Shown here one piece after another: positions 5,194 to 23,846 of a stretch of 64,000 nt of DNA; position 1 is the stretch's first letter; each line of letters begins with the position of its first letter. The stretch lies in IMG/VR virus record IMGVR_UViG_3300037419_001822, positions 1 to 64,000 of that record. One strand, given 5' to 3'. The DNA is from a virus. A program made the position numbers and the translations under genes. Below the pieces are notes generated by a model, which saw nothing but the letters and a program-made list of their open reading frames with translations, made no database searches and had not been told where the DNA came from.

Positions 5194-5339
5194 CAAGTTG
5201 CCTTTCTGGTCAAAGCCTGTGTGTACGGGGTGGACGAACTTCCTACACTGTAGCACATCTGTAGTGACAAAAGTGTCGCGGGCACCCGATAGACTGGACA
5301 ACAGATTCAGTCATCGGGGTGAAGAAGGTGTCCAGACAC

Positions 5340-6671
5340 ATGGCATGGCAGGCGAGCGCGCTCCAGACCCCGATCACCCCGCCCGCCGGACTGCCCATGG
5401 GCGGCTACGGCACCGTCGCCGGACCCCGCATGGCCAGCGGCACCTTCTCCGAGCTGTACGCCCGCGCCGTCGTGCTGCGCGACTCCGGCACCCCCTACGT
5501 CATCGTCTCCGCCGACCTGCTCGGCTGGCCGCACGGCACCGCCGAGGCCATCCGCTCCCAGGTCACCGCCGCCACCGGCCTGCCCGCCGCCCACCTGATG
5601 CTGCTGGGCACCCACACCCACAATGGGCCCGCGCTGCCCGGCAGCCCCGACCCGTGGCGCGCCTACGCCCTCGGCGACCCCACCGCCATCGAGAACTACG
5701 AGCTGGACCTGATCAACACTGTTGTCCAGCTCGTCGTCAACGCCCTGAGCGTCGCCCCGACCAGCGTCACCGTCGACTACAAGACCACCACGCTGACCGC
5801 GTCGACCAACCGCGAAGGCCTGGCCTACACCGAGACCCAGGTGCCCGTCCTCGTCGCCCGCAAGACCGACGGGCAGCCCCTCGCCGTCCTGTTCGGCTAC
5901 GGCTCGCACCCCGTCGCCGCCGGATGGCAGACCCAGTGGGACGGCGACTACCCGGCCGCCGCAGCCGCCGCCATCGAGGCCGTCTTCCCCGGCGCGGTCG
6001 CCGCGTTCCTGCCCGGCGCCGCCGGAGACCAGAACCCCACCGGCCCGGCCGGATGGGCCCTGCGCACCAGCCTGGGCGCGAAGCTCGCCGACGTCGTCGT
6101 CTCCGCCGCCGTCGCCCCCGGCCGGGCGCTCACCTCGATCACCGCCGCCCGGCTGCAGAACACCAGCCTGCCGCTGGACATCGACCCCACCCCGGGCAAC
6201 CTCGCGGCCGTCCGTGACTGCTTCGCCACCCGCGCCGCCAACGGCACGGCCGCCGCCTGGGACCGGCGGCACGCGCAGGCCTCGGTCGACGCCATCGACG
6301 CGGGCGACACGTTCCCCACCGCGCTGACCCTGCCCATGCAGGTGTTCAAGTTCGGCGGGGCGACGCCGCTGTCGCTGGCGTTCGTCGGCGGCGAGCCCGT
6401 CTCCGGGTACGCCGTGTATTTCCGCTCCGTGTACGGCGCGGACAAGCTGTGGTTCGGCGGCTACGGCAACGGGCTGCTGACCTACCTGCCGTCGAACGAG
6501 CTGCTGCCCCCGAACCGCACCGGCGGCTCCTACGCGGGCGGCTGGAACACCGACTTCCCGGGCATCGGCGGGGGAGCGATGTGCATCTACGGGCCGATCG
6601 CGCACTTCCTCGCCGGGAACTCCGGCGTCGAGGGCGCGCTGATCAACGGGGTCGCGGCGCTACTGGCCTGA
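5340..6671 (+). CDS. Neutral/alkaline ceramidase-like metallo-amidohydrolase
   Basis: ITPP..PMGGYG, LYARAVVL, VSADLL, THTHNGP, YGSHPV, DYP, FLPGAAGDQNP and GE motifs are characteristic of the bacterial neutral ceramidase N-terminal family. Confidence 0.8.
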   Translation: MAWQASALQTPITPPAGLPMGGYGTVAGPRMASGTFSELYARAVVLRDSGTPYVIVSADLLGWPHGTAEAIRSQVTAATGLPAAHLMLLGTHTHNGPALPGSPDPWRAYALGDPTAIENYELDLINTVVQLVVNALSVAPTSVTVDYKTTTLTASTNREGLAYTETQVPVLVARKTDGQPLAVLFGYGSHPVAAGWQTQWDGDYPAAAAAAIEAVFPGAVAAFLPGAAGDQNPTGPAGWALRTSLGAKLADVVVSAAVAPGRALTSITAARLQNTSLPLDIDPTPGNLAAVRDCFATRAANGTAAAWDRRHAQASVDAIDAGDTFPTALTLPMQVFKFGGATPLSLAFVGGEPVSGYAVYFRSVYGADKLWFGGYGNGLLTYLPSNELLPPNRTGGSYAGGWNTDFPGIGGGAMCIYGPIAHFLAGNSGVEGALINGVAALLA

Positions 6672-6827
6672 CCGGGTCTCGCGGATCATCCGCTCGGTGA
6701 AGCAGGGCCACTCCTGGCCATCCTGGTTGCAGACCTCGAAGTCGCGGACGTCCTGGGTGTCGTAGCACCAGGAGCTGACCACCTTCGCCCAGTGCCGCTC
6801 CCGCAGCCGCGACGCCAGGTCGCTCAC
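6660..6827 (-). CDS. Small hypothetical protein (55 aa, C..WPC motif); not in the ORF track
   Basis: GTG start overlaps the nucleotidyltransferase stop (GTGA). Reads MSDLASRLRERHWAKVVSSWCYDTQ...QEWPCFTERMIRETRSGQ*. Confidence 0.55.
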   Translation of the reverse strand: MSDLASRLRERHWAKVVSSWCYDTQDVRDFEVCNQDGQEWPCFTERMIRETRSGQ

Positions 6828-7651
6828 CGACGGTCCCAGTGGGCCAGGTACATCCGGTGCAGCAGCCGGTCGATCGCCTCGCGGTCGGGCTCCTCCTTGA
6901 TCCGCCAGGGATTCTGCTGGCGCAGGCTCTGCAGCTCACGCTCCAGCTCGGCGACCAGGGCCAGCACCTCGACCTCCCACACCTCGCCGCGCTTGATCTG
7001 CAGGATCTTCTCGCGCCAGTCGCGCTCCATCGGCAGGATCACCCGCTGCCAGCGCAGCAGCTCGATGCCCTGCACGGCCAGCCGCACCGCATGTGAGGCG
7101 AACTTCGTGTCGTACCCGTACTTCTCGACCAGCTCGGGCCGGTTGGTCCGGCCGACCCCGACCATGCCCCGGCGCTGCCCGTTGAGGTAGCCCAGGTAGC
7201 GGTCGGCGGCCTGCAGCGACACGAACGACGGCGCGTGGTCGAGTAGACGCCAGGCGAGCCCGTCGGCGTACACCCGCGCCTCGGGTGGGGTGAACAGCAG
7301 GGTGAGGATCGACGGGTTGCCGTCGGCGGCCAGGCGGCAGAACTTCCTGGCCCCGTACACGGTGACGTCCAGGTCGCCGGGGCCGGAGCGGTTGCCGGTG
7401 CCGCCCGGCCGGTCCCAGGCGGTGTGCCGCTCGTACTGCTCGAACCGGCGCAGCCCGGTGATGAACTGCGGCGGTTCGAGGCAGACGCCCATCTGGTCGG
7501 TGTCGTCGGTGCCGGGCAGGGCGATGCCGTGCACCCCGGAGCCGACCTCGGCCAGCAGGATCAGCCCGTCCTGGGCGATCTGCCGCGCCTCGTCGGAGGC
7601 GTGCGGGTGGCCGGGGTAGGCGGCGGGGAGCTGCGGCGCGGTCCTGTTCAC
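6824..7651 (-). CDS. DNA polymerase beta-superfamily nucleotidyltransferase (RlaP/PF10127-like)
   Basis: EVGSGVHG..DDTDQMGV (GS...DxD), GNPSILTLLF, YGYDTKFASHAVRL and IKRGE motifs. GTG start at 7651 overlaps the upstream stop. Confidence 0.8.
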   Translation of the reverse strand: MNRTAPQLPAAYPGHPHASDEARQIAQDGLILLAEVGSGVHGIALPGTDDTDQMGVCLEPPQFITGLRRFEQYERHTAWDRPGGTGNRSGPGDLDVTVYGARKFCRLAADGNPSILTLLFTPPEARVYADGLAWRLLDHAPSFVSLQAADRYLGYLNGQRRGMVGVGRTNRPELVEKYGYDTKFASHAVRLAVQGIELLRWQRVILPMERDWREKILQIKRGEVWEVEVLALVAELERELQSLRQQNPWRIKEEPDREAIDRLLHRMYLAHWDRR

Positions 7652-7821
7652 CGCCAGCGCCGCGTGGTCGTCCACATCGGGGTGGGCTGCCTCAGAACGG
7701 GCCGAGGCTTGCGGTCGACGCGGGCGCTGCGGATGATCAGCCACCACACGAGGGCCGAGTTGATCGCGACCAGCGCGAGGAAGCCGACAAGGACCCAGCC
7801 GTACCAAGGCGTGACAATCAC
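7648..7821 (-). CDS. Small membrane protein (57 aa); not in the ORF track
   Basis: MIVTPWYGWVLVGFLALVAINSALVWWLIIRSARVDRK... GTGA overlaps at both ends. Confidence 0.6.
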   Translation of the reverse strand: MIVTPWYGWVLVGFLALVAINSALVWWLIIRSARVDRKPRPVLRQPTPMWTTTRRWR

Positions 7822-8285
7822 CCTCTCCCTGCTCGTCGCACGCCTCGCACGATTCGCGAGACGGTCGATTGGTGGACGCCGAAGCGCTTTGCGATCGAAT
7901 GCTGGCTTTCGCCGCTGGCCTGGGCCTGGCGGATGGATGCGACCTGCTCATCGGTCAGGCGCGCGTTCCAGTGTTTGACCCCGCCGTGGAAGAGTCCGCG
8001 ATCCCGGCCTCGGGCGACCATATCGGCGGTGTTCTGCGCTTTCGTGCCCGCGTAGGTGTGCTCGGTCGCGCAGCACGGCGGGTTGTCGCAGGTGTGCAGG
8101 ATCGACATCCCGGCCGGGATGGGTCCGCGCGTCAGCTTGTAGGCCACGCGACTAGCGCGCTGGGGTGCCCTGCAGCCAGGCGCGTCGACCAGGCCATAGC
8201 CCTTCTCGTTCCGACGACCGGTCCACTCCAGGCACCCGGACGGAGTCCTCTCCGTCCGGGCCCAGAACGACTCCGGCCAGTCCAT
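7818..8285 (-). CDS. HNH endonuclease with C-terminal helix-turn-helix (homing endonuclease-like)
   Basis: MDWPESFWARTERTPSGCLEWTG..KGYG..ILHTCDNPPCC..EH..GTKAQNTADM, then LTDEQVASIR..SIAKRFGVHQSTVSRIV. The ATG overlaps the Ro60 stop. Confidence 0.8.
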   Translation of the reverse strand: MDWPESFWARTERTPSGCLEWTGRRNEKGYGLVDAPGCRAPQRASRVAYKLTRGPIPAGMSILHTCDNPPCCATEHTYAGTKAQNTADMVARGRDRGLFHGGVKHWNARLTDEQVASIRQAQASGESQHSIAKRFGVHQSTVSRIVRGVRRAGRG

Positions 8286-9976
8286 CAGATCCTCCCGGCG
8301 GAGAAGTCGGCGATCAGGTTGGGCACGGCCGAGTCGAACCCGGCGACGTCGAGCGACAGCGGGTCGGCCGGGTCGTTGACCGTCCAGCTCGTCGCGGTCA
8401 TCCCGGCCACGATCGAGCGCGCCGGGATGCCGGTCTGCTCGCGGTAGCGCCGGATTGCCTGGTGGACGTGCACGGGTCCAGCCCAGGTCTCGTTGTCGGT
8501 CCAGGTCGACACGACGTCGAACTCGCGGCCGGTCTCCAGGGCCCACGTCCACGGCAGGGCGCAGTCGGTGCCCCCGAACGGCAGCCGGGACACGTAGGAG
8601 ATGACGTCGTCCAGGCGGCGGCGCGGCGACAGGTCCAGCGGGGTGATCCCGTTGTACTCGTTCCGCCAGCCCCAGCCGCTGCGGCTGCCGTCGCTGGTGA
8701 AGCCGACGACCTCGACGTCGGGCTCGGTCGCCATGGTGACCATCGCCATCGCCGCCGACGCCTCCCGGGGGGTGATCGGCAGCCCGGCGATGTTCTGGTA
8801 GCCCATCGACCCGGACACGTCCAGGGCGATCAGGGTCCGCTTGCCGGACGGCTCGACCCCGCCGAACGCCTGGTAGAACCCGGCGTCGAGGGCGTCGGTG
8901 ACCTGCCGGACCGGCTGCCAGGTCGCCGAGCCGCGCAGCGACCGCCCGGAGGCGTAGGTGCGCAGCGCGACGAGCACGTTGACCGGGTGCACCTTGGCCT
9001 GGGCCATGCCGGTGGCGAGCTGCTCGCAGACGTTGGCCCGCACGGCGGCGCTGGACAGCAGCCCGACCTGGGTGAGCTTCGGCAGGTTCCGCATGAGCGC
9101 GGTCTGCGGCATGCGGTGCTCCAGCAGCGCCACCCACACGGCGGGGGAGTTGAGGTGCTCGGGGATGAGCGCCTCCCATGGCAGGCCGGGGTACTGCTGG
9201 ATGAGCCGGGCGGTCTCGTTCGCGCTGGGCGAGGCCTGGGCGCGCTGGAAGCCCTCGATGAGCCGCAGGCTGTCGAACGCGGTCGGCAGCTCGGCGGTCG
9301 CGGCCGGGAGCCGCCCGCAGGCGAACTCGAACGCCAGCCGCCGGGCGATGCCCTCCTCGTCTACGACGAAGGTGTCGCCGTCCTCGTGGACGTCGATGTC
9401 GAACGTCGGGTGGGACAGGCGCAGCAGGTCGCGGTGGGTCCAGCCGTTCCGCTGCCGGTACTTGATGAGCTGGTAAGCCAGACGGTCGACCGGCTTAGAC
9501 AGGTACCACCCGCCGATGGCACGGCGGAGGCCCCGGCCCCACCCCCGGAACTGCTCGACGTACTGCGCGAACAGGAACAGGTGGGTGCCGGTGCGGGCGA
9601 CCTGCGGCAGCACGTCGAGGGCGATCGAGCGGGTCTCGTCGTCGCCGAGCCCGGCGCAGGCGGCCAGCGCGAAGATCGCCGGGTTCTGCTTCGGCGCGCG
9701 CCCGGCCGTGGAGATCATCACGATCTCGGCGACGACCTCGGGGCCCCGGGTGCGGATCAGGTCCAGCAGCGCGGTGGCGTTCTCCTTGGTCAGCTCGCGC
9801 TCGCCGGTGTAGTAGGTGCCGCCGACGGTGCCCATGACCAGGAACCGGCGCAGCCGGGCCAGCTCGTCCACGGCGAAGACGTAGCCCCCGGCCGCGTTGC
9901 GCTGCTGGCGCGGGTCGGCCTGCTCGCTCTGCACGATCGCGCGGGCCTGGATCAGCGTCAGCGGGTCGCTGGACAT
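8285..9976 (-). CDS. rsr: Ro60/TROVE-domain RNA-binding protein with vWA domain (Rsr orthologue)
   Basis: RFLVMGT.GGTYY, KYRQRNGWTHRDLLRLSH, MPQTALMRNL, MIDAS DVSGSM, GGTDCALP, TDNETW, DVAGFDS. GGAGGA RBS precedes the ATG at 9976. Confidence 0.95.
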   Translation of the reverse strand: MSSDPLTLIQARAIVQSEQADPRQQRNAAGGYVFAVDELARLRRFLVMGTVGGTYYTGERELTKENATALLDLIRTRGPEVVAEIVMISTAGRAPKQNPAIFALAACAGLGDDETRSIALDVLPQVARTGTHLFLFAQYVEQFRGWGRGLRRAIGGWYLSKPVDRLAYQLIKYRQRNGWTHRDLLRLSHPTFDIDVHEDGDTFVVDEEGIARRLAFEFACGRLPAATAELPTAFDSLRLIEGFQRAQASPSANETARLIQQYPGLPWEALIPEHLNSPAVWVALLEHRMPQTALMRNLPKLTQVGLLSSAAVRANVCEQLATGMAQAKVHPVNVLVALRTYASGRSLRGSATWQPVRQVTDALDAGFYQAFGGVEPSGKRTLIALDVSGSMGYQNIAGLPITPREASAAMAMVTMATEPDVEVVGFTSDGSRSGWGWRNEYNGITPLDLSPRRRLDDVISYVSRLPFGGTDCALPWTWALETGREFDVVSTWTDNETWAGPVHVHQAIRRYREQTGIPARSIVAGMTATSWTVNDPADPLSLDVAGFDSAVPNLIADFSAGRI

Positions 9977-10007
9977 CGGGGGTTCCTCCGTCGGGGGGGT
10001 CACGGTT

Positions 10008-10106
10008 ACGGCTCGGCAGGACCACGGGCGTGGGGGTGGCGGCCGGTGGGTTTCTTTGACAGAGAAGAGAACCGGTCGCCTCCGGCCCGTGGTCCTGCCG
10101 AGCCGT
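10008..10106 (-). ncRNA. Y RNA-like unit 4 (short, no D/T arms; anticodon-like loop CU-GUC-AA)
   Basis: Perfect 22-bp terminal inverted repeat (10008-10029/10085-10106) and Ro-type bulged helix GGGC-C-G/CGCCC. Internal hairpin UUCU-CUGUCAA-AGAA. Lies directly upstream of rsr. Confidence 0.8.
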
Positions 10107-10114
10107 GGCTTTGG

Positions 10115-10202
10115 TCCTGGCCGGGGCGGGCGTGTGAGTGGCTGCCGGTGGGTTCTTTATTCGGAAGAGAACCGGCTGCCTCCGGCCCGCCCCGGGCCAG
10201 GA
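10115..10202 (-). ncRNA. Y RNA-like unit 3 (short, no D/T arms; UU-CCG-AA segment)
   Basis: Terminal stem UCCUGGCC(C)GGGGCGGGC/GCCCGCCCCGGCCAGGA. Shares GGGCCGGAG..CCGGUUCUC and CCGG..CACGCCC with the other units. Confidence 0.8.
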
Positions 10203-10207
10203 AGTGA

Positions 10208-10356
10208 GCGAAGCGGGCGTGGTGTGCAGACCGGGGTTAAGTGCTCTACCAACTGAGCTACACCACAACCGCACCTACGTCGGTCATGGCGACGGGACTC
10301 GAACCCGCGACCCCTCCATTAGCAGTGGTAACCGGAACCGCTCCGGCCCGCTTCGC
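10208..10356 (-). ncRNA. yrlA: YrlA-like Y RNA unit 2 with circularly permuted tRNA-like domain (loop CU-GCU-AA)
   Basis: Minus-strand order: GCGAAGCGGGCCGGAG; CCA-CUGCUAA-UGG; T arm GCGGG-UUCGAGU-CCCGU; closed acceptor-like stem; D arm UAGCUC-AGUUGGUA-GAGC; CACGCCCGCUUCGC. The T arm precedes the D arm, as in YrlA. Confidence 0.88.
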
Positions 10357-10380
10357 AGTCTGTGAAGTTGTGTGGGTGTA

Positions 10381-10536
10381 GCGGGGGAAAGGGAGCGGGC
10401 GTGGTGGTGTCCACCGTCCGTTTCACATGCTCTGCCGATTGAGCTACCGGGTTCCAGGAACCCGGACGGGACTCGAACCCGCAACACTGTGCTCCCAAAG
10501 AGAACCGGAGAACTCCGGCCCGCTCCCTTTCACCGC
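10381..10536 (-). ncRNA. yrlA: YrlA-like Y RNA unit 1 with circularly permuted tRNA-like domain (UU-UGG-GA segment)
   Basis: Terminal stem GAAAGGGAGCGGGC/GCCCGCUCCCUUUC, T arm GCGGG-UUCGAGU-CCCGU, acceptor-like hairpin CCGGGUUCC-U-GGAACCCGG, D arm UAGCUC-AAUCGGCA-GAGC. Confidence 0.88.
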
Positions 10537-10580: not shown

Positions 10581-10865
10581 TTACGGGGTCCGTCGGCGGA
10601 TGATCCGCCGGACCTCCTTCTCCGGGATCAGGTCGCGCAGCCGGTCCCGGTCGACGTCGGTCAGGTCGTTCTCGTCGTCCAGCATCCCGTTGAGCACGTA
10701 CTCGGCCAGGGCCACGTTCAGCACGTCGCTGAGCGTCTCGCGCTGGATCTCCGAGAGGTACTTCGCGGCCCACCACAGCTCGTTGGGCACGCGCACGGAA
10801 CGCGGGGGGGTGGTGGTGGTCTCGGCGGTGGTGGCCTCGACCGAATCGGTGGTGTCGATCGGCAT
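10581..10865 (-). CDS. Ribbon-helix-helix DNA-binding protein
   Basis: PRSVRVPNELWWAAK...ETLSDVLNVALAEYV fits the RHH beta-alpha-alpha pattern. GAGGA RBS. Confidence 0.7.
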   Translation of the reverse strand: MPIDTTDSVEATTAETTTTPPRSVRVPNELWWAAKYLSEIQRETLSDVLNVALAEYVLNGMLDDENDLTDVDRDRLRDLIPEKEVRRIIRRRTP

Positions 10866-12045
10866 GGTGTCCTCGCACGGGTCGCGGTCCTGCGGGGTCG
10901 ATGACCGACCCCTCGGGGCCAAGTGTACGCGGAGCGTCCATACAGACGTCAATCGTCACGTCCCCGTGGGTGTGTCGTTACCGGGGGGGTGCTGGGGGAA
11001 GCAGGCCCCCCCGGCTATGCAGGGGCGCCGATTGTGTCGTCGTCAGCAGGCCCACCCCCATCCCGGCCAAGGCCAGTAGTCCCGCCCCGATGGCGAGGAT
11101 CCAGGTCCACTCCCCCTGGGAGGGCCCGCCGCGCGTCGTCCGGTGCCGCCCGCTCACCCGCCCCCGACCTCCCCGGTGTCGGCGGCAGCAGCACAGGCCG
11201 GGCACACGTCGAGCGGCCCGGTGATGCGCCATCCGGCCTCGGCGGCCAGCGTGCGCAGCGCGGCGAACGCCTGCTCGCGGGTGTCGGCGCGGACGTCGGC
11301 GGAGAAGTCCGGGGTGTCGCATTCGTAGTCGCAGAACAGCGCGACGTGCCGGAACGGGAACGGGTCGTCGCCGTCGAACGGGGAGGGGTGCTGCGGGTCG
11401 TTCGGGTTGGTCACCGGCGGGTCACCCTCTCCAGGATGGCGACCACAAGTACCGGCCCAAAGAGAACGATCACCAAGATCATGAGGGTCCAGACGAAGGT
11501 CATCGGAACGGGCCGTCCTTCCAGTCGACCGGCTCCTGGTACTCGGTCAGCGCGGTCTGCGGGTGGTCGTGATCCCACGGGGTCATGAGCCAGGACCGGT
11601 TGTAGTCGCCGGTCGGCCAGCGGCCGTCGCCGGGCCGGAACTCGCGGACGATCACCCGCGCCGCGTTCATCGACTCCAGCTTGACGTGGGGCTTGATCCG
11701 GCCGACGACGCGGCCGTAGCGCATGCCCGCCTCGATCGAGAAGCCGAGCACGTCGCCGACCTCGACCGGGTCGCCGACGCGCTTCGGGTACTCCCGGCCA
11801 CACAGACAGTCGCTCATCGGGTCTCCTTCCCGGAGAGGGGGACGATGTGGACGTCGGGGCGGCGGGTCGACGCCCACAGCCACAACATGGCGTCGTTCAG
11901 GCAGTCGTCGCGGTCGCAGACATGCGTCGAGGCGAACGGCTCGCCCGATTCGTAACCGGCCCGCAGATCCTCGTGCGAGCTGACGCGGCGCGTCGGCTTG
12001 TGTCGGCACGTCGGATCCGGCAGGTCGTAGCGGCTCACGATTGCC

Positions 12046-14661: not shown

Positions 14662-14697
14662 GGAGTTCCTCTCGTGTCTGAACGCGTTGTTCCTACA

Positions 14698-14735
14698 GCT
14701 CAAGTATACACCCACGTAGTGGCGCGCGTCCATAC
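14698..14735 (-). promoter_or_regulatory. Repeated phage promoter GTA-TGGACG-N18-TATACT-TGAGC
   Basis: -35 at 14727-14732 and -10 at 14703-14708 (minus strand), upstream of DUF932. Confidence 0.75.
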
Positions 14736-14891
14736 GTTGGCCGGGGGGATGTGGGCGGGATCCCCCCGGCCAACGGCCCTACGCGGCGTCCGGCTTGAGC
14801 AGCTCGGCCCACTCGGCGGCGAGCTTCTCCGGGTCGATCAGCGTGTCGGCCACCACCTCGTCGTAGACCGGCGTGGTCTCCGGCTCGGCCA

Positions 14892-18777: not shown

Positions 18778-18820
18778 CTGTGGCTCCAGTATACACCTCT
18801 GGCCCTACGCACGTCTATAC
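18778..18820 (-). promoter_or_regulatory. Repeated phage promoter GTA-TAGACG-N18-TATACT-GGAGCCACAG
   Basis: -35 at 18812-18817, -10 at 18788-18793. Confidence 0.75.
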
Positions 18821-19537
18821 GCAGGGCCAGGTGGATCTCAGGCGGCGGGGTTGCCCAGCGCCAGGCGGGCGTCGAGCAGCTCGTTGACCTCGGCCTCGGC
18901 GCGGTCGACGTCGGACTGCCGGTCGCCGTTCGGGCTGTGCGCGTAGGCGCGGCGGGCCAGGGTGAGCTGGGCACCGGCGACCAGCAGGCTCAGGTCGATC
19001 TCGACCACGCTGCGGACCAGGGGGAACGTGCGGGACTGGGTGGGGGCGGGGGCGGTCATGCGGATCGTTGTCCTTCCTGGGACTCGGTGAGCTGGTAGCG
19101 GGCGATGCGCTCGGCGGCGATGGCGTCGATGAGGTGCTCCTCGCGCCGCCACAGGGTGTTGTGGGCGTGACGGAACTGCTCGGACCACTCGGGGGTCTCG
19201 CGCTCGGCGGCGGGCTTGGCGAGCAGCCGGTCGACGTCCTGCCGGGCGAGGGTGCGCAGGGTGGCCAGCGCGCTGGTGCGGCGGGCGGCCAGGTGCAGGT
19301 GCAGGCTGGCTGCGCCGACGACGGTGGGGTGGGCGGCGACGAGGGTCATGCGACTTCCTCTTCCTGTTCGGCGGCGAGCGCGGCGGCGAGCTGCTCGCGC
19401 AGGGCGGCGAGTTCGGCGTGCAGTTCCTGGCGGACGAACCGGCTGTGGCAGCGGCCGAGGCGGCGGTTCTTGATGTCGATCCGGTGGCGGATCTTGGTGC
19501 TGGTCACGGGGTGGGGCCCCCTCGGGGTCGTCGTGTT

Positions 19538-19580
19538 CTGTGGCTCCAGTATAGCCGTTCGTAGGGTCGTGCGTCAATAC
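19538..19580 (-). promoter_or_regulatory. Repeated phage promoter GTA-TTGACG-N18-TATACT-GGAGCCACAG
   Basis: -35 at 19572-19577, -10 at 19548-19553. Confidence 0.78.
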
Positions 19581-20212
19581 GAGAGGTTAGACGGAAACCG
19601 CCTCCACGATCTCGAAGTCGGCCCCCTGGCGGGTCCGGAAGGCCTTGATCGGGGCCAGGGCCTTCCGGTAGGCGGCGGGCGTGACCCTCTCGTCGGCGGT
19701 CCGAATGGCTTCCCACGTACCGTCGCCCTCGATCAGCTCCATGAGCTTCGCGGCGGCGCGGGCAGGCTTGGGCCAGTACGCCCAGCCGTCGGAGTTGGCG
19801 TTCGCCCAGTCGCGCAGGTTGGCGATCGTCCGGGTGGCGGGGCCGAGCACGGGATGGTCGACGAAGCGCCGGACCGTGCCATCGATCTCGAAGTCGTTCA
19901 TGAACCGCATGTCGGTTTCTTCTCCTGTGAGGTTGGTGCGGGGCCCGGCCGGGGGAGTGGTCACCCCGGCCGGTCTCCGGGTCAGTGGGTCAGCCCTGGT
20001 CGTCCAGGGCCTTGATGCAGTCGCGGCAGGTCTCGCGGAGCGGGACGTCGCGGGCGTCCAGGGTGGCGATGACATCGCCGGGGCCCCCTCGCTTGCTGCC
20101 GCAGACGGGCCGCGCCTCCATGGGAAGCCAGACGTGGATCTCGCCGTCGGTGTGCTGGACGAGGTACACGTGGGTGGCGGTCATCGGGGTGCCTCCTGGG
20201 ATCGGTCTCCGT

Positions 20213-20255
20213 CTGTAGCTCAAGTATACACTCTCGTCAGGTCGCGCGTCTATAC
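20213..20255 (-). promoter_or_regulatory. Repeated phage promoter GTA-TAGACG-N18-TATACT-TGAGCTACAG
   Basis: -35 at 20247-20252, -10 at 20223-20228. Confidence 0.75.
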
Positions 20256-22244
20256 ACTAGACGGGATCGGTAGGCTTGTTCTCCGTGGACGAGAAGGTGT
20301 TCGTGGGCTGGCCGCGCGGTCGGCGGCCGACCAGGGAAGAGGCCCTGGCCATGGCCCGGCGCCTGGTCGAGCAGATGCAGGCTCAGCGGCTGCTGCGCGA
20401 GGCTGCCCAGCTCGACCCCTGGCCGGAGCCAGAGGAGCGGCCGTAGTCGGGGTCGAACTCCCGCAGGTGGTCGGCTAGCAGGGGGCGGTCGGTCCCGTCG
20501 CCACCGACGTAGCCGCAGGTGCACCACGGCCGTCCGGCCCACGGCGGAACGACCGGCTGATGGTCGGGGTGGGCGGTGGGCACAGGCTGGCCCGGCGAGG
20601 TCATTGGAGCTGGTCCTCGATCTGCTCGATCACGCCCTGCAGCTCTTCGCGGGCCACGAACACCTCGGTGCGGCGCACGCCATCTGCGGCGGCGAACTGC
20701 GCGTTGAGGACTCCGACGTGATCCTGGAGATTGTCGAGCACGATCTTCCAGTTGCCCGGCGACAGGCTGACCGAGGTGTAGGCGTCCATCAGGGATCTCC
20801 TCTCAGTCGGTGCTGGTCCAGCGGCGGGTGTCGAGCAGCCGCATGATGCGGTCGGCCTTGCCGCGCCCAGTGAGGCGCAGCCACTGGCCGGTGTCGTCCT
20901 GTCGGAGCACCCTGCGCACCCGGTCATGCAGGTCGTAGGTGATGCTGAGGTAGCGGCGGTCCTTGCGGTAGGCGTCGGTGAGCCCGTTGCGGTCCAGGTC
21001 CCAGCCTGCCAGCTCGGCGGCCAGGCGGATGCGGGCGCGGGCGGGAGTGGTCATGACTCCTCCTCGGGCACCTCGCGGACCTCGACGGACTCGATCGCGA
21101 TCACGTACGTGTACATGTGCGTGCCCTTCGAGTTCTCGGTGTCCTGCACCATGACCGGATACTTGCCGACGGCGAGCTGCGGGTCGGCGACGACGTCGCG
21201 CCACCACAGGTTGACCTTCTGCACGGCGACGTCGTCCTGGAAGCCGACGACGGCCTTGGGGTCGCCGCGCCAGAACTCCTGGCCGAGGACGTCGCCGTTC
21301 TCGTTGACGACGAACGGGTAGGGGAGCTGGGTGCCCTCGACCAGGGAGCCGTCGGGTCCGGCCCACATGTTGTCGACGTGGGGGGCGGGCTGCAGGGTGA
21401 TGATCTTCATGGGTGTTCCTCTCTAGCTCAGGATGTCGATGAGGGAGCCGATGACGCCCATGCCGTGGTCCCGGCACAGCGGGTCGGACCCCTTCGGGGC
21501 GTTCTCGGGCTCGTAGTACACGGTCGAGTTGATGCCGCGCACACTGTCCCGGCCGCCGGTCTTGATCGCGACGACCGCGCGGGCGTAGCAGTTGCTGCAC
21601 TTCATCGGGAGGCCTCCACCACGGTCAGGATGATCTGGCCGGAGGTCACCTCGCGGCCCACGGTGGCGTCGTGCCCGTGCTGGATGAAGACGTCGCGGAC
21701 GATGTTGAGCAGGCGGAAGGCGTTGTGGCCGGTGCCCTCGTACCGGAGGCAGAGACGGAAGACCCCCTCCGAGACCTGGGCGGCGATGACCGGGGTCGCG
21801 CAGGTGGAGAGCTTGGCGACCTGGGCGACGGCGTCAGCGGTGAGCGGTTGGGAGGTCAGCTCGGCGACGTGGGCGTCTCGGCGGGCGAGCGTCTCGCGGC
21901 GGCGGAGAACTGCCTCGTGGTGCGTCGGGGTGGTCATCGGGGCCTCCTGTCGGTGTGGATGGTGGCGCGCTCGGTGTGGCCGCACACGACGCAGGCGCGA
22001 CGCTCGCCGCCGTGCCGGTAGGGCTCATCGGACGGCTCGAACGGGTGCGGGTCGTCGGTCGGCCGGACGTCGGCGACCTTGCGGGTCACGGTGATGCCGG
22101 TGCCCTTCTCGTAGCGGCGCGGGACGTTCGCGGCGGTGATGTGGACCCACTTGCGGCCCACGACGACGCGGGAGATCGGGTCGCCCAGTGAGGTGAGGTC
22201 GCCGACCTGGACCGACTCGGCGGGGACGAGGACGGTCTGGTAGG

Positions 22245-22514: not shown

Positions 22515-22537
22515 CTCTGCCTCCTCTGCTGTCTAGC

Positions 22538-22573
22538 CTCAGTATACACCCGTGGCGATGCGTATGTCTATAC
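22538..22573 (-). promoter_or_regulatory. Repeated phage promoter GTA-TAGACA-N18-TATACT-GAG
   Basis: -35 at 22565-22570, -10 at 22541-22546. Confidence 0.75.
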
Positions 22574-23846
22574 GCGCGTTAGGATCGGTGCAGCCAGTGC
22601 TTCCGGGTGCCCCAGGCGAACCACAGACCGAGCACGAGCGAGACGTCGGCCAGGTCGCCCGCCTGCTTGCTGTTGCCGGTGACCAGGAACGCGACGATGA
22701 CCAGCGCGACGGCGAAGGCCAGGCCGATGACGACGCTGGCGACGCCGGAGCGGCGGGGGGCGGGGTCGGGCTCGGGGGCGTTGTGGGCGGTCATGGGGGC
22801 CTCTCTCTCGGGGTTGCTGTCAGCCCCTACTGTACTACCCATGTCAAGACGGGTGTGCTACAATCAAGCCAGACAGCAGAACCGAGGAGGCATCACCCCA
22901 TGGAGACCATCAACGGCTTCACGATCATCGCCAGCCACCCGCGCGGCTTCGATGCCGAGCGCGTCATCCTCGGCGTCGCCCGCCACGTCCGCCCCGACGG
23001 CCAGCCGGACGACGTCGAGTACGTCACCGCCATCGCCAAGCTCGGCCCGGTCACCTCCTGGTACTGGGGCCACTACTTCGGTGGCTACGCCCCCGAGTCC
23101 AGCCTGTTCCTCGCCGCCGTCGCCGACTTCCGCGAGCGCGCCGAGATCGTGGAGGTGGCCCGATGACCCGCAAGCCGCCCCACCTCTTCCTCTACACCAG
23201 CCGCCAGGACGGCCTCGTCCACTGGAGGGAGCCCGGCGTGGGCCAGGCCCCGGGCCGCTACATCCCCGCCCTCCGCTACCTCTGCGGCCAGTGGGCCGGG
23301 GTCAACGACGAGCTGGACTCCCTGGCTGCCGTCGAGGACGCCCCGATCGAGCCCGACACCTGCGTCGACTGCGTGCGCTGGGCCGACGAGCTGTGGCCCC
23401 TAGAGGTGGCCCGATGACCGGTCCGGTCCAGTCCCGCCGGGCTCGCCAGTCCGGCCGGATCGTGGAGGTCTGGCACGCCGCCGACCTCGGCGTCGAGGAC
23501 GACGCCGGTGACTGGGTCACCGTCTGCCGCGACCACGGAACCGACTGCCACCACGCGACCCGAGCCCTGGCCGTGTCCTGGGCCGCCGAACCGCTGACCT
23601 GGTGCGAGGAGTGCCAGAGGGAGGACAACCGATGACCCGCACGATCACCGTCCGGGGCCGCGAGTACACCGTCGAGGACGAGCCCCGGCTCAACGGCGAG
23701 ATCGCCCCGCACCTCTACAGTGCCACGGGCGAGCTGGCGGGCGTTGTGATCGAGGCAGCCAACGGGCTGACCTGGATCATCGACACCCCATGGCCCTGGA
23801 CCGCCAGCGACATCCGCGACGCTATCCGGCAGATCCTCGCCTAGAC

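Follow-up and report, generated by a model that had tools for sequence, protein, structure and literature searches.

Why does a phage encode a Ro60 protein and Y RNAs in one operon with a nucleotidyltransferase of the RlaP family? The operon in question lies on the minus strand of IMG/VR virus record IMGVR_UViG_3300037419_001822, within the first 64 kb of this 113,439-bp record, the stretch that was analysed and that we refer to as the window. The record has a G+C content of ~70% and no end repeats, and its completeness according to CheckV is 88%. The closest relatives of its Ro60 and RlaP genes are found in Actinomycetes phages and genomes, and the carrier is a high-GC actinobacterial phage. 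To our knowledge, the tethering of PNPase in Deinococcus and genetic linkage to RtcB are all that is established for the Ro60-Y RNA particles of bacteria and phages. An original prediction made from the window interpreted the locus as a self-contained RNA end-repair or anti-defence module, with the nucleotidyltransferase as its putative Ro60-tethered effector, or, alternatively, as a prophage defence module held in check by the particle. The locus itself is unsurprising, as both families have already been placed in RNA-repair neighbourhoods. Two papers, citing Burroughs & Aravind 2016, assign RlaP to counter-RNase repair systems and describe TROVE as a ribonucleoprotein platform for repair in jumbo phages (PMC7824862, PMC6514570), and Ro60 with Y RNAs has been published from phages (PMC4201824; PMC12135203). 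Such phages are more than the "few" of the original prediction, since tblastn detected Ro60 in 354 of 50,697 phage records; RlaP was detected in 462.

Here, we describe a computational analysis of this operon and of its relatives. Judged by gene content and position, Ro60 and RlaP are separable, yet they are found together far more often than chance would allow, and the company that they share is RNA repair. We lean, by a modest degree, towards reading the locus as an accessory module for RNA repair or RNA surveillance that would rely on a ligase of the host.

Results

Organization of the operon

On the minus strand, the operon opens with four Y-like RNAs (10527-10008), behind which lie the genes for Ro60, an HNH-helix-turn-helix (HTH) endonuclease, a 57-aa hydrophobic protein (TM57), RlaP and a 55-aa protein (p55). 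As had been predicted, the five open reading frames are chained directly behind the RNA array, all on this strand and with the domains attributed to them. The chain is unbroken, each junction overlapping by 1 or 4 nt. The Ro60/HNH junction reads TGATG, with 1 nt shared with the Ro60 stop, and a GTGA overlap occurs at the HNH/TM57, TM57/RlaP and RlaP/p55 junctions. Domain calls are firm for three of the five proteins (TROVE + vWA_Ro60, HNH_3 + HTH, and PF10127 RlaP). The arrangement is that of one translationally coupled unit behind a Y RNA array.

The Ro60 gene (rsr, 8285-9976) encodes a 563-aa protein with TROVE (Pfam, 2.2e-43) and vWA_Ro60 (6.6e-54) domains and a metal ion-dependent adhesion site (MIDAS) DxSxS motif, whose residues D386, S388 and S390 are invariant in the alignment. 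The protein matches the NCBIfam Rsr model over its full length (471 bits, 4.6e-141), under the strict equivalog cut-off of 900, as well as phrog_850 (1e-85), and is 52-57% identical to actinophage and actinobacterial Ro60. Its start is the ATG at 9976, preceded by a GGAGGA ribosome-binding site; a longer GTG start at 10003 was rejected, as it would extend into the last Y RNA unit.

The RlaP gene (6824-7651) encodes a 275-aa Pol-beta nucleotidyltransferase, in agreement with the original prediction. It matches PF10127 with 88 bits against a cut-off of 23 (1.1e-24, profile positions 13-248 of 249) and phrog_388 with 2e-55. The catalytic set G37-S38, D49-D50-x-D52 and D93-x-D95 is invariant in 40 relatives, and the catalytic residues of the phage protein are intact. 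An AlphaFold2 (AF2) model (pLDDT 94.5, pTM 0.91) consists of a Pol-beta nucleotidyltransferase (NTase) domain followed by a helical domain. The closest solved folds are KNTase/ANT(4'), which is likewise two-domain, AAD(9) and Hailong HalB, with TM scores of ~0.4, and the likeness of the model to these proteins is that of the generic Pol-beta fold. Searches of the PDB by sequence and by profile found no RlaP structure. The crystal structure of PfRlaP has an N-terminal NTase domain and a C-terminal helical domain whose last helix packs back (bioRxiv 10.64898/2025.12.29.696909), and the AF2 model appears to have this layout as judged by secondary structure. Two Pseudomonas RlaPs append 1-2 nucleoside monophosphates to RNA 3'-OH ends and favour damaged RNA, and over-trimmed tRNA treated by these enzymes regains aminoacylation after ligation (10.64898/2025.12.29.696909). 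By analogy with the Pseudomonas enzymes, the only ones for which this activity is known, the phage RlaP would be expected to add nucleotides as well.

The Y RNA array that was predicted ahead of rsr comprises four units with a common scaffold, GGGCCGGAG...CCGGTT...CACGCCCG, two of them YrlA-like and two of them stable hairpins. Unit 1 (10391-10527, 137 nt) contains a tRNA-like T/D module and a terminal stem, GGGAGCGGGC/GCCCGCTCCC, and scores 41.5 bits against Rfam YrlA (E 1.2e-7, model positions 23-87). Unit 2 (10208-10356, 149 nt), which scores 34.5 bits (E 1.3e-5), combines a tRNA-like module with a long acceptor-like stem; an 11-bp terminal stem closes its fold of -68.6 kcal/mol (z -2.5). 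The other two are long bulged hairpins: unit 3 (10116-10201, 86 nt), which is without the tRNA-like module (z -6.65), and unit 4 (10008-10106, 99 nt), which has a 22-bp terminal stem (z -10.5) and stops 32 nt ahead of the Ro60 ATG. In units 1 and 2 the T-arm GGTTCGAGTCC and the D-arm TAGCTCA..GG.AGAGC align to YrlA. Neither unit reaches the YrlA (RF02553) gathering score of 69 bits, the aligned part being the tRNA-like core (23-88), and the YrlA-like RNAs of related actinobacterial loci likewise score below 69 bits. Scans of the window at Rfam gathering thresholds and with ARAGORN found nothing, and its Y RNAs are visible to Rfam models only under E-value thresholds. YrlA carries a mimic of T-arm and D-arm inside a terminal stem that bears a 5' GNCGAAN0-1G Ro-binding motif (PMC4201824); GCCGGAG, one mismatch from this motif, occurs in all four phage units as a putative Ro-binding motif. 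The array's mix of two classes matches the description by Chen et al. of bacterial Y RNAs as one tRNA-like class and one hairpin class (PMC4201824).

Linkage of Ro60 and RlaP

The original prediction had proposed a survey of gene neighbourhoods for co-occurrence of TROVE and PF10127, and this survey revealed linkage beyond chance by three routes: gene neighbours, phylogeny and genome content. For 160 RlaP genes of this clade (80 viral and 80 from genomes), all plausible open reading frames lying up to 5 kb away were clustered. The commonest genuine neighbour of RlaP is Ro60 (11 of 80 viral and 5 of 80 genome loci), followed by Hen1 or Pnkp (9 of 80 genome loci). On a FastTree phylogeny of 141 RlaPs, the linkage to Ro60 requires ~10 gains or losses and is therefore not one inherited accident. 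The pair recurs in at least 6-8 separate RlaP lineages with differing arrangements, Ro60 lying upstream of RlaP on the same strand with 0-5 genes between, downstream of it, or divergent from it. Proviruses of the M. abscessus type, for example, have the order Ro60 - DUF6283 - small HTH - 56 aa - RlaP, with all genes overlapping.

The nearest viral RlaP (56% identity), in a locus that we designate L169, is sister to that of the window with an SH-like support of 99, both being long-branched. Here the order is YrlA x2 - Ro60 - RlaP - 68-aa two-helix membrane protein. The 322-nt gap between Ro60 and RlaP was searched for a Y RNA, and none was found, only a strong hairpin. This perfect ~20-bp GC-rich hairpin (L169:9641-9700) directly follows the Ro60 stop and may be a processing or attenuation site.

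The genome survey covered 401 evenly drawn Actinomycetes genomes, of which 77 encode RlaP, 36 TROVE and 162 RtcB. RlaP is present in 30 of the 36 TROVE-positive genomes (83%) versus 47 of the 365 TROVE-negative ones, which gives an odds ratio of 34 (15 among RtcB-positive genomes, with 11 for RtcB-RlaP and 7 for TROVE-RtcB); these ratios are naive in that they ignore shared ancestry and genome size, and their value as support is lessened to that extent. TROVE and RlaP lie within 2 kb of each other in 3 of the 30 co-occurring genomes, against a chance expectation of ~0.2. The tallies include unpublished genomes, none of them TROVE-positive and none contributing any sequence to this analysis: G045 (RlaP, RtcB) and G009, G017, G032, G038, G265 and G375 (RtcB). 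Two adjacent PF10127 genes, tandem or divergent, were observed in ~16 of the 77 RlaP-positive genomes, many of them large (e.g. G258:C4:756966-758326, G395:C9:331648-332999 and G188:C1:1853422-1854890); these paired genes are a different, higher-scoring RlaP subgroup.

The association of RlaP-like enzymes with RNA repair, which the original prediction had put forward, is borne out by relatives that sit in Pnkp/Hen1 operons together with YrlA and Ro60. In three Nocardioides genomes (L313, L319, L325; e.g. L325:9836-17123) the order is RlaP - YrlA-like RNA - Ro60 - small HTH - Hen1 - Pnkp, and the YrlA-like RNA scores 48 bits over the full model length. Like the phage, these operons combine RlaP (~49-53% identity to the phage protein), a YrlA-like RNA and Ro60 (51-52%). 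Unlike the phage, they have RlaP first and add the small HTH protein, the Hen1 methyltransferase and the Pnkp kinase-phosphatase-ligase. By gene content, the Nocardioides set is a complete repair operon, of which the phage carries only the trio of RlaP, Y RNA and Ro60, and it joins a Ro60/Y RNA particle to Pnkp/Hen1 repair rather than to RtcB.

A number of observations weigh against a functional tie between the two genes and would fit a different explanation, in which Ro60 with its Y RNAs (RNA quality control) and RlaP (tRNA end repair) are independent cargo placed side by side in a region of gene shuffling. In phages, each gene usually occurs without the other. No RlaP lies inside the 10-kb flank of 152 of 160 Ro60 loci, leaving eight with it, and the four closest Ro60 carriers (Cashline, Sparky, prophiGD43A-5 and one IMG/VR provirus, ~54% identity) are without RlaP anywhere. 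Conversely, the three closest RlaP phages, Confidence, Estes and Sephiroth (43-46% identity), are without TROVE; the RlaP neighbours in Sephiroth are a polynucleotide kinase, an RNA ligase and tRNAs. Cluster C mycobacteriophages have both genes ~26 kb apart, and 80 metagenomic RlaP loci, on short contigs, yielded none with Ro60 and seven with Hen1 or Pnkp. Furthermore, an HNH gene and two orphan genes between or beside rsr and rlaP indicate that the region accepts insertions, and every lineage has its own arrangement. Such a coincidence is nevertheless at odds with the rank of Ro60 as top neighbour of this RlaP clade, with a linkage that at least 6-8 lineages gained or retained, in three orientations, and with the adjacency and strong co-occurrence of the two genes in bacterial genomes. 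We consider it unlikely. Of the evidence that the original prediction had named as refuting it, one half, the occurrence of RlaP independently of Ro60, is seen in the three closest RlaP phages, and Ro60 likewise occurs without RlaP in its four closest carriers.

Other actinophage Ro-like loci (cluster C, Sparky, Cashline and Streptomyces BE-type) and that of Thermus phage phiLo (PMC12135203) encode a Ro60 orthologue with 37-55% identity. These loci resemble the window in having upstream Y RNA-like genes in an accessory phage region; those inspected differ from its coupled operon in that RlaP is missing in Cashline, Sparky and prophiGD43A-5 and remote in cluster C. In Streptomyces phage Liandry (L329), a borderline RlaP-like match (74229-74519; 24 bits versus a cut-off of 23) was observed; the Ro60 gene of this phage lies ~6 kb downstream of the match, within a large tRNA gene array.

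Two further proteins were observed beside Ro60 genes. In 44 of 165 Ro60 loci from actinobacteria and actinophages, the gene directly 3' of Ro60, on the same strand, encodes a small HTH-like protein of ~70-100 aa that we designate c3 (L003:7574-7798, L045:12141-12362, L325:12826-13128 and 41 others). Its core reads RAQQAREHHR...HRxQRDxLIRxLR...WTYxxLAxAVGCSPELIAxIVK, it has no match in PHROGs or NCBIfam (Pfam was not searched), and it may be a local regulator or a partner of Ro60. It was not found in the whole phage record, and the C-terminal HTH of the phage HNH protein was rejected as a stand-in, the c3 hidden Markov model giving a non-significant E of 0.12-0.3. The second is a DUF6283 protein (PF19800, 6e-38) with a Cys-rich N-terminus, encoded at L045:11710-12144 and in five sister M. 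abscessus-type proviruses; its gene lies between those of Ro60 and the small HTH protein and is joined to them via overlapping stop and start codons.

Absence of a ligase from the phage record

The original prediction had noted that no RtcB or RNA ligase gene is visible in the window. This is correct, and it extends to the whole 113,439-bp record, in which RtcB, a Pnkp-type ligase (PNKP_ligase), an Rnl2-type RNA_ligase (PF09414), an AAA_33 polynucleotide kinase and Hen1 were searched for and not found; two tRNA genes are present at 77.1 kb. The module cannot be called self-contained, as had been proposed, for the record holds neither a ligase nor an end-healing enzyme. Because there is no ligase, the module is unable to seal RNA breaks by itself. 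This inability of the phage to complete RNA "repair" alone is a further burden on the favoured reading, as is the statement in the RlaP preprint that the 3'-OH product of RlaP is mismatched to RtcB chemistry (10.64898/2025.12.29.696909). RtcB was also not found in four other viral records with Ro60 and RlaP, which are incomplete. The five operon proteins gave no Pfam match to RtcA or RtcR, families at which no search was aimed.

These absences set the phage apart from two of its closest known counterparts. Like the phage, the rsr-yrlBA-rtcBA operon of Salmonella Typhimurium (PMC4201824; PMC7790460) places Y RNAs beside Ro60 in one operon, has one tRNA-like and one plain-hairpin class of Y RNA, and carries RNA-repair enzymes alongside. 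The phage differs in being without RtcB and having RlaP as its repair enzyme, in having four Y RNAs placed 5' of rsr, and in the carrier being a phage; additionally, no RtcR-type regulator was seen in its operon, with the limit on RtcA and RtcR just given. The RlaPs of RtcB and Pnkp/Hen1 operons share with the phage protein the family, the GS and three-Asp set and, as far as its model shows, the NTase and helical domains, and close relatives of the phage RlaP (49-57% identity) directly adjoin Hen1 and Pnkp. Unlike these, the phage record is without a ligase, so that it lacks the "ligase-associating" setting from which the family took its name, and the partner is Ro60/Y RNA. Particular to this locus are the complete lack of a ligase, the four Y RNAs of two classes and the insertion of an HNH gene.

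A phage RlaP without a ligase might also serve the particle itself, extending Y RNA 3' ends or cleaved acceptor-like loops and thereby controlling the maturation, stability or Ro60 loading of the Y RNAs, with damaged cellular RNA not being the target. Consistent with this, the TROVE association in Actinomycetes is tighter for RlaP (odds ratio 34) than for RtcB (odds ratio 7), and all tested phage records with Ro60 and RlaP are without RtcB. Moreover, tRNA enzymes, the CCA-adding enzyme among them, recognise YrlA of M. smegmatis, and in vivo this RNA is cut by RNase P and CCA is added (PMC4201824); in Nocardioides, rlaP and rsr directly flank the YrlA gene. On the other hand, Ro60 is present in only 30 of the 77 RlaP-positive genomes, the same RlaP clade lies beside Hen1 or Pnkp without Ro60 in six genome and seven metagenome loci, and the characterised RlaPs work on damaged tRNA (10.64898/2025.12.29.696909). 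We regard service to the particle as improbable, more so than independent cargo.

The HNH, TM57 and p55 genes

The original prediction had included the three remaining genes in the operon. A role for them as functional parts is not supported: none of them is conserved in related Ro60-RlaP loci. The HNH gene (7818-8285) encodes a 155-aa protein with HNH_3 (3.8e-8) and HTH_38 (2.5e-6) domains in Pfam that matches phrog_1872 (1e-27) and also phrog_826. No related Ro60-RlaP locus examined carries it between rsr and rlaP, and homologues occur at unrelated positions in nine other loci. The protein is likely a selfish homing endonuclease of the free-standing type, a mobile passenger inserted between rsr and rlaP, whose insertion would be tolerated because translational coupling is preserved. 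When metagenomes were scanned with the RlaP profile, no relative exceeded 56% identity, so that there were no near-identical phages with and without the HNH gene to compare.

TM57 (7648-7821), a putative membrane protein, was recognised as an open reading frame with a GTGA overlap on both sides. It has no match in Pfam, PHROG, PADLOC or NCBIfam, and 5.8 billion protein clusters yielded just one homologue, with 85% identity. The p55 gene (6660-6827) encodes a small protein with three homologues (64-69% identity), which share an invariant pattern of H12, W13 and C33-NQDGQ-x-WPC42 and thus argue that it is a real gene. It weakly matches a "zinc-finger" family (phrog_14169, 9e-5) and is perhaps metal-binding, possibly zinc-binding; an AF2 model of it has a pLDDT of 54 and cannot be relied on. 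The p55 alignment brought up no match when viral and metagenome contigs were scanned with it, p55 is not adjacent to any other RlaP examined, and the ESM Atlas gave no usable lead. As conserved partners of RlaP both were rejected, for tblastn on 328 loci matched only the window's own DNA. On this evidence of conservation TM57 and p55 appear as lineage-specific passengers and near-orphans.

A chained membrane protein bears on the defence alternative of the original prediction. In a fuller form of it, a defence or abortive-infection module, the NTase would be toxic or signalling, in the style of Hailong HalB or of toxins such as MenT, the small membrane protein would be its effector, and the Ro60-Y RNA particle would restrain both. 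In its favour, RlaP is chained to one small membrane protein in the window and to another in L169, and HalB is among the Foldseek structural neighbours of RlaP (E 6e-4, TM 0.42-0.50). However, these membrane proteins show no relationship to each other, one precedes RlaP and the other follows it, and neither occurs in the other linked loci. The similarity to HalB is no better than that to KNTase/ANT(4'), RlaP is a clear PF10127 member with relatives in Pnkp/Hen1 repair operons, and PADLOC 2.0 had no match for Ro60, RlaP, TM57 or p55, its sole match in the operon being the HNH protein ("homing endonuclease", 2.7e-5). With a near-orphan as its proposed effector, a defence system is the least credible of the explanations considered, and we think it very improbable.

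Flanking genes and transcription

Downstream, p55 and a convergent ceramidase-like gene (5319-6671, plus strand) share 12 nt at their 3' ends (6660-6671), so that there is no space for a terminator between the two transcription units. Upstream, an Arc/ribbon-helix-helix-like gene (10584-10952, minus strand; 123 aa; phrog_6506, 3e-6) stops 57 nt short of Y RNA unit 1, and its product is a possible local regulator of the array. A scan for promoters and terminators revealed no σ70-like promoter and no terminator flanking the operon, which likewise does not help the favoured reading; the two terminator-like matches both fall within Y RNA units. A repeated leftward promoter-like element, with a GTATAC-containing -10 region and a conserved -35-like box, was observed at 14697-14745, 18782-18830, 19542-19590, 20217-20265 and 22535-22583, the first copy being the nearest upstream of the operon. 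The operon is probably the distal end of a leftward small-gene region, and its Y RNAs and genes would be co-transcribed.

Discussion

A translationally coupled unit behind a Y RNA array, the recurrent linkage of Ro60 and RlaP and the relatives in repair operons are the parts of the original interpretation that are supported; its self-containment, its defence alternative and HNH, TM57 and p55 as functional parts are not. What we favour in its place, by a narrow preference, is an accessory module for RNA repair or surveillance. According to this model, one leftward transcript would give rise to the four Y RNAs, of which two have a tRNA-like elbow and the others are plain hairpins, and would also serve as the translationally coupled mRNA for Ro60 and RlaP. 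Ro60 and the Y RNAs would form particles that bind damaged or misfolded RNAs, and RlaP would add 1-2 nucleotides to the 3'-OH of damaged RNAs such as tRNA fragments. Because the phage has no ligase, the sealing of breaks, if needed, would be left to a host ligase (RtcB or Pnkp/Hen1). The likely benefit is that tRNAs and other RNAs would stay usable under host ribonuclease attack during infection. The cooperation of Ro60/Y RNA with RlaP, the dependence on a host ligase and the counter-defence purpose are steps that we infer. A role of a phage Ro60-like protein in counter-defence has been described for phage Bas63, where it counters the ppl defence system (PMC11482910).

A bolder proposal, which we hold to be doubtful, is that in Actinomycetes and their phages the main enzyme to work with the particle is RlaP and not RtcB: RlaP would dock on the tRNA-like arm of the Y RNA, and the 3' ends of RNAs held in the Ro60 ring would gain 1-2 nucleotides. 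If this were true, there would be a ligase-independent pathway for the restoration or marking of RNA 3' ends, carried by phages as a minimal three-part kit. The phage Y RNA-Ro60-RlaP operon represents a convenient minimal system for asking whether the particle directs an RNA-end nucleotidyltransferase. Together with the presence of RlaP in 83% of the TROVE-positive actinomycete genomes sampled, it offers a route to testing whether phages use such particles against the tRNA-cleaving defences of their hosts.

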